The translations under genes and the position numbers were made by a program. A stretch of 11,511 nt of DNA from a virus: the UHGV virus genome UHGV-0110285. One strand, 5' to 3'. This document shows positions 9,125-11,511 of this stretch, in pieces. The notes below the pieces were generated by a model. It saw only the letters and a program-made list of their open reading frames with translations, was not told the origin of the DNA and did no database searches. Within the stretch, counting starts at the first letter, position 1. Every line of letters begins with the position of its first letter.

Positions 9125-9579
9125 ACAGAGTAACCGCGATTATCTCCGCTCTGGTTATCTGCATCATCGTCTGCCTGTCATGGGCTGTTAATCATTACCG
9201 TGATAACGCAATCGCCTACAAAGAGCAGCGCGATAACAAGGCCAGTGAACTGGAGAAGGCGAACGCCACCATCGCTGACATGCGGAAGCGTCAACGTGAT
9301 GTAGCAGAACTCGACGCAAGATACACAAAGGAGCTTGCTGATGCTAACGCGACTATCGAAAGTCTCCGTGCTGATGTTTCTGCTGGGCGTAAGCGCCTGC
9401 AAGTCGCCGCCACCTGTGCAAAGTCAACGACCGGAGCCAGCGGCATGGGCGATGGAGAAAGCCCAAGACTTACAGCAGATGCTGAACTCAATTATTACCG
9501 TCTCCGAAGTGGAATCGACAAGATAACCGCGCAGGTTAACTACCTGCAGGAATACATCAGGACGCAATGCCTGAAATAA
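9121..9579 (+). CDS. rzpD: Rz spanin inner-membrane subunit (i-spanin), 152 aa from the ATG at 9121 overlapping the endolysin stop (the track ORF starts at 9103)
   Basis: [28 protein letters not shown].. : N-terminal transmembrane segment then a coiled-coil-like periplasmic domain; position after the endolysin. Confidence 0.85.
9341..9526 (+). CDS. rzoD: Rz1 outer-membrane lipoprotein spanin (o-spanin) embedded in the +1 frame of Rz, 61 aa from the ATG at 9341 (the track ORF starts at a TTG at 9335)
   Basis: [20 protein letters not shown]|[16 protein letters not shown].. : lipobox ending in Cys, proline-rich mature part; AAGGAG 9 nt upstream; fully nested in Rz. Confidence 0.8.
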
Positions 9580-9610
9580 TTTTTTTGCAAATCACAAAGT
9601 CCATTTAATG

Positions 9611-9636
9611 AGCCTCGCGATGCGGGGCTTTTTTTA
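9611..9636 (+). terminator. Intrinsic terminator downstream of Rz: AGCCUCGC-GAU-GCGGGGCU followed by UUUUUUU
   Basis: GC-rich 8-bp stem (one G-U pair) and a T7 run on the plus strand, 32 nt after the Rz stop. Confidence 0.7.
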
Positions 9637-9784
9637 CATCTGAATTTCACAGCGCATCTCACGCGCATATTACATCACCCGAGCCTTTCAGAAAGTTGAG
9701 CCTGAGAACTGCCGTATATGGTGGCGACCATCTCGGGGCGGCTTTTCTGTGAGACAGGCTCACTTTCTAAAAGGTAAAGACGCT

Positions 9785-10273
9785 ATGAACCAATTAGAAG
9801 AAAAGCTTCAAAGAATGATTTCCTTATACAAGGAAGATAACTGCCAAAAAGTTCCTGAAAACATCGCAGAGTTAATGGAATTGGCAAGTGAATTTTCTGG
9901 CATGCTTAAGTCGTCAGGTGTTCGGTCAGCGTTCTTTGTTGAAATGCTGATGCACGGCGGACTTATGGCAACAATGAGACGTGTAATGGAAGACCAGAGA
10001 AAAGAACCTCCTCAGGTATACGTTTTGTCATCGAAGAAAACTGGGCTAACCAAAATTGGGTATTCATCCAACATTCCACAACGCATCAAATCGCTTGGCA
10101 ACTCTGGACCAGACTGCTTGAAGCTTGAGTGCCTGATCCCTGGTGGAAGAGAAACTGAAAACATGCTTCATCGCAAATTTGCCGCAAAGAGAAAGCACGG
10201 TGAATGGTTCGCCCTGTCCAAGGATGACATTGAGGGATTGAAATCTGTAGCGATTACTTCTGATGGCTATTAA
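9785..10273 (+). CDS. Hypothetical protein with a C-terminal T5orf172/GIY-YIG-like domain, 162 aa from the ATG at 9785 (the track ORF starts at a GTG at 9749); sits where lambda carries bor
   Basis: C-terminal half QVYVLSSKKTGLTKIGYSSNIPQRIKSLGNSGPDCLKLECLIPGGRETENMLHRKFAAKRKHGEWFALSKDDI fits the T5orf172 pattern (VYVL..KIG...R..L...E..LH..F...R..GEWF); AGGTAAAGA RBS before the ATG; N-terminal 75 aa helical with no recognised similarity. Confidence 0.6.
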   Translation: MNQLEEKLQRMISLYKEDNCQKVPENIAELMELASEFSGMLKSSGVRSAFFVEMLMHGGLMATMRRVMEDQRKEPPQVYVLSSKKTGLTKIGYSSNIPQRIKSLGNSGPDCLKLECLIPGGRETENMLHRKFAAKRKHGEWFALSKDDIEGLKSVAITSDGY

Positions 10274-10310
10274 TGCTTGTTTAGAGCAATTTTCATAACA
10301 ACTCTTCATT

Positions 10311-10345
10311 ACAAAGCCCATCTACTGGTGGGCTTGATAATGAAA
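10311..10345. repeat. Copy 1 of an imperfect direct repeat (ACAAAGCCCATCTACTGGTGGGCTTGATAATG); also folds as a hairpin AAGCCCA/TGGGCTT
   Basis: Aligned by eye with 10667-10705; shares the ACAAAGCC, CTAC, GTGG and TTGATAATG blocks. Confidence 0.45.
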
Positions 10346-10587
10346 CCGTGATTTACATCCCCACAATCCGGGTATGTAAAAGATAGTTCAGGCGAGAACG
10401 GATTTAACTAAATCTGTGCGCCACCAGTTAACGGCAGTACCACGAAACAACCCAAGCCAGTAAGTGGGGAAATAACACCGGCAGCCACTGAAAGATGAAC
10501 CTCCTGCCTTATGGCAAAAAAGATTCTTTGTGGTGGCGGACTGATGGAAAGACATCCTAATTTCAGCCAAACATTGAAGGAGTTGTT

Positions 10588-10659
10588 ATGTCAGCAGAAG
10601 GTTTCAATAACCCATCAAAATTCCGGGATGAGTGGGATAGCAGCGTAAAGAGTAAGTGA
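10588..10659 (+). CDS. Possible 23-codon small ORF (MSAEGFNNPSKFRDEWDSSVKSK) with a strong Shine-Dalgarno; may be a micro-protein or the 5' remnant of a lost gene
   Basis: AAGGAG 5 nt upstream of the ATG; short; lies between the two direct-repeat copies. Confidence 0.25.
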   Translation: MSAEGFNNPSKFRDEWDSSVKSK

Positions 10660-10666
10660 TGCCATC

Positions 10667-10705
10667 ACAAAAGCCATTCCCTACAGAGTGGCTTTGATAA
10701 TGGCT
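10667..10705. repeat. Copy 2 of the imperfect direct repeat (ACAAAAGCCATTCCCTACAGAGTGGCTTTGATAATG); hairpin AAGCCA/TGGCTT
   Basis: Aligned by eye with 10311-10345. Confidence 0.45.
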
Positions 10706-10951
10706 TATACCCTACACGGGATAACTTAACTGATATCCCTTTTAAAGGATAAAGGTATTCAAGCCTGACACATCATGCGCTGTATCGTCGCCGTATTCCC
10801 GTATTAACAGAGACCGTAGCCCGACGGGGAACTCCTTCTGCGAGAGTGTGCGGGAATAATCAAAAACGATGCACACCGGGGTTACCGGGTACACATATTT
10901 CATCATGCCAGCGAGTCCGGTTCTGGCACGGAAGAAACCGGACGTTATGAT

Positions 10952-11362
10952 TTAGTGCGGAAATATTTGTGTAGTGTTCTGAATGTTCTCAGTAAAGAGT
11001 AATGAATTATCAAAGGTATAGTAATACCTTTTGTTTTCGTGGATATTTGTAATCCATCTGAAAACCCCTGCTGTAGCAAGATTTTTCCTGTATTCGTAAA
11101 ATGATAACTCTCCTGATTTGAATCCTTTTAAGGTGGCTTCTATAAGGCATTTATTTTTTGAAAATCTTACATTTACAACCTTACCCTGTCCTTTTATTAA
11201 AACCGTATTATCGTTTTCAAGAACAAGATGAATATTCTCTGTGGCTAAATAGTAAATGTAATGTGAGACATTGTGACGTTTTAGTTCAGAATAAAACCAG
11301 TGATAGTTTAAATTATTTCGCACTTTATCGAATATTTGTTTAAAAATGGCAACCTGAGCCAT
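10952..11362 (-). CDS. AT-rich hypothetical protein, 136 aa from the ATG at 11362 (the track ORF starts at 11377); tentatively YbcV-like
   Basis: [38 protein letters not shown].. ; GGAAGG RBS 7 nt upstream of the second ATG; 136 aa equals the recalled size of DLP12 YbcV, which lies in the same place and orientation relative to the lysis genes; strongly AT-biased codon usage. Confidence 0.45.
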
Positions 11363-11511
11363 TGTAGTACCTTCCATGTGATATGAGGGGCGTAGTCTGC
11401 ACGATTATCTAAATTGCTTCAATCTGGTCTGATCTGTTTTCTGAGCAATTCAGTAATTGATCCTACCCACGTAATATGGACACAGGCCTAAGCGAGGTTC
11501 TTGTTTTCAAA

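Follow-up and report, generated by a model that had tools for sequence, protein, structure and literature searches.

The RNase III sites of phage T7 consist of two stems around an internal loop and lie between cistrons in a long phage mRNA, and the put sequence of HK022 and the nut/box elements are cis-acting structured RNAs of lambdoid operons. The idea of 'linkers' at module junctions in phage modular evolution is reportedly Botstein's. Lambdoid phages and defective prophages have been shown experimentally to be homology-driven mosaics, formed by phage Rad52-like recombinases across short diverged homologies, with 'HR traces' (HR, homologous recombination) at the mosaic borders (De Paepe et al., 2014, PMC3945230). 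The late regions of enterohaemorrhagic E. coli (EHEC) prophages carry AgvB and AsxR, Hfq-bound anti-sRNAs (sRNA, small RNA) of 51–60 nt, 3' of pR' and upstream of the lysis genes (Tree et al., 2014, PMC4104026). Here we analyse positions 10274–10951 of UHGV virus genome UHGV-0110285 (the whole stretch of 11,511 nt is called the window), an apparently empty interval in the late region of a DLP12-like lambdoid prophage of E. coli. It contains two related hairpins, J1 and J2, a 23-codon open reading frame (micro-ORF) directly before J2, and, further downstream, an element that we call X. These are new families of known kinds, namely a small phage gene, an intercistronic RNA hairpin/recombination joint and a conserved RNA-like element; neither the J hairpin nor the microprotein nor X is described in Rfam, Pfam, PHROGs or the literature searched. 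We consider it probable, with ample room for doubt, that the interval as a whole is a late-operon stretch of J hairpins with a real microgene and an RNA-like X on the plus strand.

Hairpins at the joints of a mosaic

Comparison with E. coli genomes, GenBank phages and IMG/VR contigs, with breakpoints mapped by blastn in ~130 loci, resolves the stretch into short consecutive modules (J1, D, E, micro-ORF segment, J2, L and X; Table 1), which are ~90–100% identical to parts of very different phages: lambda-like, HK97-like (HK544, HK106, HK97), P22-like (HK620, Sf6, IME10, Emek) and Shiga toxin (Stx) phages. Homology breakpoints cluster at 10305–10307, 10342, 10355/10417, 10556, 10660–10664, 10686, 10753, 10883 and 10943. 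The comparison shows an arrangement of what appear to be plus-strand late-operon modules, with J at cassette ends and mosaic joints and with two cassettes present here, the T5orf172 moron and segment E plus the microgene, hence the two copies of J.

The original prediction had drawn attention to two related, hairpin-forming copies with a common end that bracket about 320 bp, and this description is borne out. The repeat cores, 10307–10342 and 10663–10702, both end in TTGATAATG, are separated by 320 nt and share 31 identities over 40 aligned columns, which makes them the best direct repeat in the region. In a formal alignment their local score is 28 against 19.5 ± 2.2 in 300 dinucleotide shuffles, two of which score as high. 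Seen from the window alone the significance of the repeat is modest; the comparative evidence is much stronger. With their flanks the two copies fold at −22.2 and −22.4 kcal/mol (J1 ranges from −18.5 to −22.2 kcal/mol), and all J alleles have one architecture, an outer stem of 5–7 bp, a 2×2 internal loop and an inner stem of 9–10 bp. Homology to other phages begins at 10305–10307 in 60 loci and ends at 10342 in 18, which defines the edges of J1, and begins at 10660–10664 in 72 loci at the left edge of J2, which is abutted by the stop codon of the micro-ORF. At least 11 unrelated left contexts abut J in this way, among them the stop codons of various genes (that of the micro-ORF included), segment E and the T-tail of a canonical terminator. 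In Stx2 phage 1717 the J1 sequence (36/36 nt identical) sits in the flanks of J2 with block L directly next to it, and at least 13 loci have such a single-hairpin arrangement, the J1 sequence joined to the right flank of J2 and the 320-bp insert absent. A third allele occupies the J2 position in HK620, Chlobot and others (UAUUG-CA-GAGRCCAUUC...GAGUGGUCUC-GA-CAAUG). J1 and J2 are thus two alleles of one predicted two-tier hairpin placed exactly at mosaic breakpoints.

Crossovers occur at varied places: at the hairpin edges, inside the hairpin loop and inside the micro-ORF. The second kind is seen in locus L246, where a class-B left arm is joined to a class-C right arm and the resulting broken hairpin folds at only −8.1 kcal/mol; the third in L294 (2501–2569), a natural recombinant with a window-type N-terminal half and a P22-type C-terminal half of the micro-ORF, followed by terS. 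This speaks against a site-specific recombination site, att or attC-like, the crossover points being variable rather than fixed, and homology-driven exchange fits better. Insertion or deletion scars at a moron hotspot had been one of three options offered originally, and this option comes closest: the breakpoints at hairpin edges and the relatives with one hybrid hairpin and no insert agree with it, while its site-specific aspect fits less well, since the crossovers vary. Like the linkers and HR traces described for other lambdoid phages, J is a short conserved sequence between unrelated cassettes, at mosaic breakpoints, where it would enable recombination-driven swaps. Unlike them, it is also a two-tier hairpin whose stems have changed in a compensated and strand-specific manner, which implies that J also has a role of its own as RNA.

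The evidence for this structure comes from the variation among 40 distinct J sequences, in which 96% of the cells in 15 pairs are Watson–Crick or G·U. Over the three stem classes compared, six of the 15 pairs occur as more than one standard pair type, and five of these have changed on both sides (for example A-U to G-C or U-A to C-G). Wobbles are asymmetric between the strands (75 G·U vs 13 A·C), and the plus strand is the more stable one in 46 of 57 variants. In a Trabulsiella guamensis prophage (L318, 1122–1190 and downstream) a homologue of the micro-ORF is directly followed by a fourth J stem class (UCAUUACAGAAGC...GCUUCGAUAAUG), so that the pairing of microgene and J reaches beyond Escherichia.

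Could the hairpins be ordinary terminators? It may be argued that they are weak, perhaps bidirectional, terminators that insulate morons, alike by common descent, with the 320 bp between them a decayed moron. Morons are classically flanked by a terminator, as reported by Juhala et al. (2000), and J resembles those bounding terminators in being a GC-rich stem-loop right after a cassette gene; it directly follows gene ends, the authors of the phage Ayreon record labelled J2 'terminator', and there is an A-run before the inner stem with 2–3 T after it. The inner stems (9–10 bp, −13 to −22 kcal/mol) are also those expected of an intrinsic terminator, but the U-tract is missing, GATAATG(A/G) following the stem instead. 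Our terminator scan, which needs at least 5 T in 8, called neither copy although it did call the Rz-proximal terminator at 9610–9640, and J was rejected as a canonical terminator. In Ayreon-type phages a canonical terminator (GGGGCTTTTTATTG) stands immediately upstream of J, which makes J an extra element there, and the conserved outer stem and internal loop, which also set it apart from the moron-bounding terminators, are not terminator features. Nor is the insert decayed, since its ORF is under purifying selection, as shown below. This explanation appears unlikely to us. The related suggestion of the original prediction, a degraded gene with duplicated terminators, is not supported, since distant phages have full-length homologues of the micro-ORF, equal to it in length, and its sequence is under purifying selection, and the hairpins have no T-run and are not called by the scan. 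J is a conserved structure, on the plus strand as predicted from its variation, at cassette boundaries and not a canonical terminator.

What, then, may J be doing? The stretch is the lysis-to-packaging interval of the late operon and would be read rightward (plus strand) in the Q-antiterminated late transcript. J would close the 3' end of whichever cassette lies upstream: J1 (allele A) that of the T5orf172 moron, J2 (allele B) that of the micro-ORF. Since unlike phages share J together with its right flank, it would offer recombination a homology patch at which cassettes are exchanged, gained or lost. At the RNA level it is most likely a processing hairpin, or one that protects or stabilises 3' ends, in a long late mRNA rather than a terminator. 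With the RNase III-type hairpins of T7 it has in common two stems and an internal loop, ~15–17 bp in all, between late cistrons; J most likely works like such an intercistronic processing or stabilising hairpin, a likeness of architecture and position, and we do not claim membership of that class.

A probable 23-codon gene

A 23-codon ORF preceded by an AAGGAG ribosome-binding site was correctly recognised in the original prediction; this strong Shine–Dalgarno site is replaced by AAGAAG in a few relatives. The encoded peptide, MSAEGFNNPSKFRDEWDSSVKSK, is charged and belongs to a conserved, uncharacterised family of predicted microproteins from the late operons of Enterobacterales phages. Its members have 23–31 residues with the core motif GF[DN]NPxKFR[DE]E[WL]D, and homologues of the same size that share the motif occur in phages or prophages of at least eight genera (E. 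coli, Salmonella, Enterobacter, Atlantibacter, Trabulsiella, Cronobacter, Proteus and Providencia), those of Enterobacter, Atlantibacter and Trabulsiella coming from species-representative genomes. Full-length tblastn matches of the same size include MATQGFDNPSKFRDEWDKQAEGK (P22-like coliphages), MAVEGSDNPVKFREELDKSIPKK and MAAQGFDNPTQFREELDKSIPKE (Proteus phages) and MATQGFDKPEQFREELDKSIPKE (a Providencia phage), and Cronobacter phage ES2 has a homologue of 27 residues. Relatives of the micro-ORF are encoded in 344 IMG/VR viral contigs. A profile search of 5.8 billion proteins, with an alignment headed by a 44-residue in-frame extension of the micro-ORF, gave 55 clusters of 23–70 residues with E-values down to 2e-13; such names as they bear read 'hypothetical' or 'uncharacterised', and only one of the 55 lists a Pfam domain (PF25688), the other 54 having none. 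The micro-ORF is not the truncated 5' end of a known gene, a reading that would have undone the original proposal, as homologues of the same length exist in distant phages.

Most homologues in the searched phage records are unannotated, and the window-type micro-ORF is never annotated in the 129 E. coli genomes that have it. The peptide motif was not found in the literature searched. The closest described family is Pfam DUF2740 (PF10872), whose profile positions 19–32 align with residues 5–18 of the microprotein, but the two matches score 13.2 and 13.4 bits against a gathering cut-off of 27, so that by the Pfam criterion the microprotein is not a member; none of the 55 clusters is annotated as DUF2740, and PHROGs gave no match. 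Two metagenome-assembled genomes, one of Cellvibrionaceae (L309) and one of Candidatus Nanosynbacter (L310), contain a peptide 100% identical to that of the window within near-identical E. coli-type flanks, which is probably due to mis-binning or contamination.

Purifying selection acts on the reading frame, with a ratio of non-synonymous to synonymous polymorphism (pN/pS) of 0.41 in frame vs 0.78 and 1.27 in the other two frames. In the window-type allele all three nucleotide variants are synonymous while the adjacent non-coding bases vary. The micro-ORF is neither the relic of a larger gene nor a chance occurrence.

The homologues always lie in the late operon, in different arrangements. In one P22-like group (at least 29 contigs) the micro-ORF has a DUF2560 gene before it and terS after it, with 5 nt from its stop to the terS ATG; a different contig places it two genes upstream of terS, where the genes are closely packed. 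The phages of Proteus and Providencia have it just after Rz, standing alone between hairpins that resemble terminators, and in phage ES2 it comes after Q. The short distance to terS invites the view that the micro-ORF serves only for translational coupling or as a leader, the sequence of the peptide being irrelevant, and that in the window it is a functionless passenger of recombination; here it is followed by a hairpin and not by a gene, and most relatives lack it. Yet the peptide keeps its sequence and length across genera in spite of different downstream contexts (Proteus, Providencia, ES2), and both the low pN/pS, confined to the ORF frame, and the synonymous variants of the window-type allele amid varying flanks speak for the peptide itself. 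We give such a coupling-only role a low probability, similar to that of the terminator explanation. A small regulatory RNA or a leader peptide had also been proposed originally, and this is right in part: the hairpins do behave as conserved plus-strand RNA, whereas the ORF is leader-like only in P22-like phages and Rfam contains no match. If the micro-ORF is a gene, as we think most likely, its product would presumably be made late in infection, and our guess would be an accessory or regulatory peptide tied to packaging or lysis.

Element X, a proposed RNA structure on the plus strand

No part of the stretch is shared more widely than the core of X. The element corresponds to lambda 46867–47034, between bor and lambdap78, where it is ~82% identical, and to the borD–ybcV spacer of the K-12 prophage DLP12. 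Its boundaries are sharp amid 19 types of left flank and 24 types of right flank, and in many phages it lies 260–360 nt upstream of a Nu1-like terS gene. The structure that we propose consists of helices P1 and P2, a variable hairpin enclosed by a G/C clamp, and a 3' hairpin whose loop, GGAAGAA, is conserved. In this model 93.7% of the cells pair, vs at most 54% with the partners slid; both sides have changed in 8 of 36 pairs, and none of 500 shuffles reaches the observed covariation score. The consensus folds at −23.8 kcal/mol on the plus strand vs −7.6 on the minus strand, and wobbles are almost exclusively of the plus-strand kind (401 G·U vs 4 A·C). Variation in X thus fits an RNA structure on the plus strand and not the 54-codon minus-strand ORF that overlaps it. 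The copies in L040 and L185 have poly-G length variants in loops, with runs of 10 G, which are either sequencing artefacts or hypervariable loops. A record named 'Campylobacter phage CJLB-4' (MW057783.1, 48361 bp, near the length of lambda) matches over the same span and with the same 81.9% identity as lambda and HK629, and may be a lambda sequence under another name.

The 54-codon ORF was rejected as coding sequence. Its variable sites are spread over codon positions 1, 2 and 3 as 21/19/22, without codon periodicity, its N-terminus and start region are not conserved, lambda and DLP12 have an in-frame stop, and neither Pfam nor PHROGs has a match to its product. The frame does stay open in most variants, even through two compensated frameshifts (KEFPV / RSLPV / RSSPS), for which we have no other explanation than chance or a constraint from the plus-strand structure.

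A feature of the minus strand could also be envisaged in another form, with X the promoter and 5' leader of bor/iss, or else this ORF, left behind when bor was replaced. X is directly upstream of bor/iss on the minus strand in lambda, HK629 and DLP12, the authors of HK629 marked a sigma-70-like promoter inside it, and the ORF, open in most variants, is annotated in some records. Against this, X is retained in many phages that lack bor/iss and have plus-strand genes on both sides (Ayreon, Stx2 phage 1717, POCJ13), and the ORF shows none of the properties of a gene just listed. Pairing on the plus strand tolerates G·U and not A·C, and the promoter hexamers of HK629 are not kept, TGTCCA of lambda, HK629 and DLP12 being AGACCG at the aligned position of the window, and at this place our scan finds no promoter-like site. 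We therefore hold a minus-strand origin of X to be less likely still than the terminator or coupling explanations. As for a remnant of bor itself, this was rejected since X is all that the window has in common with K-12 and lambda, and no bor coding sequence is left. The original prediction had expected bor, ybcV, ybcW and ylcI in comparisons with lambdoid prophages; of relics of bor, ybcW or ylcI the stretch contains only the element of the bor–ybcV spacer (X), which had escaped notice.

Among described elements, AgvB and AsxR resemble X in that they, too, are RNA features without annotation, at conserved sites where lambdoid late regions tolerate morons. X differs in its length of ~170–185 nt, its place after the lysis genes, the lack of a consistent terminator tail and the absence of a match in Rfam, and identity with AgvB/AsxR was rejected in view of their different locus 3' of pR'. 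The Pas sRNA (described in a preprint) has no link to the region studied. With HK022 put and nut/box elements X would share a conserved RNA structure within a phage polycistronic transcript, while it sits in the late operon before cos/terS; the likeness drawn here is one of setting, and cis action of this kind is a possible mode for X. We infer that X, which is usually a few hundred nt upstream of cos/terS, would be a cis-acting structured RNA of the late transcript, with a role in processing, stability or expression of the packaging genes.

Genomic setting and weight of the evidence

The genes of the window run in the order porin, essD, rrrD, Rz, the GIY-YIG/T5orf172 moron gene (plus strand), the stretch studied here, the DUF1398/YbcV-like gene (minus strand), ylcI and nohD/terminase. 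As originally noted, there is no long ORF between the T5orf172 and YbcV-like genes, the longest having 60 (minus), 54 (minus) and 45 (plus) codons, and RefSeq annotation by PGAP leaves the interval blank in near-identical genomes.

Table 1. Features of the 10274–10951 stretch and of the genes on either side, in window coordinates.
Feature	Position	Strand	Description	Basis or remark
GIY-YIG/T5orf172 (MUG113) moron gene	9749–10273	+	PGAP 'GIY-YIG nuclease family protein'	Pfam MUG113 7e-15, T5orf172 3e-10
J1, stem class A	10305–10344	+	predicted outer stem CAUUA/UAAUG, 2×2 internal loop, inner stem AAGCCCAUC/GGUGGGCUU; ends TTGATAATG	inverted repeat I2
Segment D	10356–10416		61-nt presence/absence segment	blastn breakpoints 10355/10417
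Segment E	10417–10556		140-nt conserved non-coding spacer	
Shine–Dalgarno sequence	10577–10582	+	AAGGAG, 5-nt spacer to micro-ORF start	read from the sequence
Micro-ORF	10588–10659	+	ATG at 10588, TGA at 10657–10659; 23 codons and stop	encodes MSAEGFNNPSKFRDEWDSSVKSK
J2, stem class B	10661–10704	+	predicted outer stem GCCAUCA/UAAUGGC, inner stem AAAGCCAUUC/GAGUGGCUUU; ends TTGATAATGGC	inverted repeat I1
Block L	10705–10765	+	conserved stretch 3' of J2	small hairpin GGGAUA...UAUCCC (10718–10739), then UUUU
54-aa ORF over X	10742–10906	−	hypothetical protein in some phage records	
Element X	10775–10944	+	~170 nt; 183 nt in most relatives (extra variable hairpin)	
DUF1398 (YbcV-like) gene	10952–11377	−	annotated by PGAP	Pfam DUF1398 3e-43

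The complete 678-bp stretch is present in 65 of 5,426 complete E. coli genomes, and some part of it matches in 3,494 of them. The T5orf172 cassette is limited on the left by a conserved block, 9700–9790, and on the right by J1, and the corresponding breakpoints, ~9790 and 10305–10307, recur in many loci. The block follows the canonical intrinsic terminator after Rz (9610–9640) and is kept in many phages up to the start of the next moron, as the left joint of the same hotspot. Segment D is present in HK620-type phages, while HK544, Chlobot and L008 have a short CCAGAATTTATTCTGG-type hairpin in its place. Segment E is ~97% identical across P22-like, HK97-like and lambda-like phages; its A-run at 10516–10521 varies in length and one variant has a stop codon, and on account of these homopolymer and stop-codon variants the ORFs that cover it (45 codons plus, 60 codons minus, 21 codons plus) were rejected as coding. 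Homology of block L with HK97, HK620 and P22-like phages stops at 10753 (70 loci), ~12 nt before their next late gene; in HK620 hkbM starts 12 nt past the end of the match.

In Ayreon-type phages a 50-codon ORF (MPSMIAIILLIILHIWLC...; L003 1289–1441, L008 1923–2075) overlaps the end of Rz and is annotated as hypothetical; its hydrophobic product looks like a small membrane protein, judging from composition. In L007 (NZ_AP045787.1, 2237–3023) the stretch is cut at window position 10429 and fused to a truncated integrase beside tRNA-Arg, this prophage having lost everything from the integrase fragment to segment E.

A consensus scan for promoters over 9550–11511, in itself weak evidence, found a sole promoter-like site at 10923–10951; upstream of the micro-ORF it found no sigma-70 promoter such as a moron, an independent transcription unit of promoter, gene and terminator, would have. 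Rfam 15 has no match in the window at the gathering score, and at E ≤ 10 only chance-level matches appear in 10200–11000; X, J and E are likewise without a match in four related loci. Pfam and PHROGs scans of all small ORFs returned only the sub-threshold DUF2740 match of the micro-ORF.

Several points weigh against the account given here. Transcription, translation and RNA structure are all deduced from DNA letters, and the structures of J and X were derived from the same sequences that were later used to test them. Many of the sequences compared are mosaics 95–97% identical and of recent common origin, so that their counts overstate the number of independent events. The outer stem of J2 in this window has one C·A mismatch, and there is the 'terminator' label of J2 in Ayreon. 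The window-type micro-ORF occurs in only 129 of the 5,426 complete E. coli genomes and so is dispensable, and the 5-nt spacing to terS in P22-like phages would also suit an ORF that serves coupling alone. Folded as single sequences, copies of X do no better than shuffled controls (z = −1.28 on the plus strand, −1.23 on the minus strand and 0.03 for a Stx-type copy). The account also offers no role for segment E, which shows neither a coding nor a strand-specific structure signal (consensus fold −24.1 vs −24.7 kcal/mol on the two strands).

Some of these points would also suit the view that nothing in the stretch is under selection, that it is neutral filler carried along by the recent horizontal spread of neighbouring modules, with structures and ORF as by-products: most copies are 95–100% identical, the single-sequence z-scores of X are not significant and segment E has no strand signal. 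However, the microprotein is recognisable at 45–60% identity in other genera, where synonymous sites are saturated, J exists in three stem classes with compensated pairs, and X keeps its sharp boundaries in all its contexts and ~82% identity in lambda. We find this the most improbable of the explanations considered.

A stronger version of our account, which we put forward only tentatively, is that the stretch contains an unrecognised lysis–packaging module, a 23-residue late microprotein and the ~170–185-nt RNA X, both acting in late expression or packaging, with J hairpins as processing or stability sites that double as recombination joints. X, as one part of such a module, is present in lambda itself and matches in about two in three complete E. 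coli genomes.

No temperate phages have been studied better than lambda and its relatives, yet this interval is blank in PGAP annotation and in most of the phage records examined, the few others marking only hypothetical proteins or a terminator. If the microprotein is made, P22-like, HK97-like and lambda-like phages throughout the Enterobacterales would gain a conserved late gene, which would also illustrate how many genes of ~23 codons annotation misses. Should X be a functional RNA, lambda, the DLP12 prophage of K-12 and many Stx phages would carry an undescribed structured element just upstream of their packaging genes. J offers a concrete and testable example of a moron hotspot, with a conserved, apparently structured joint at which cassettes may be exchanged by relaxed homologous recombination.

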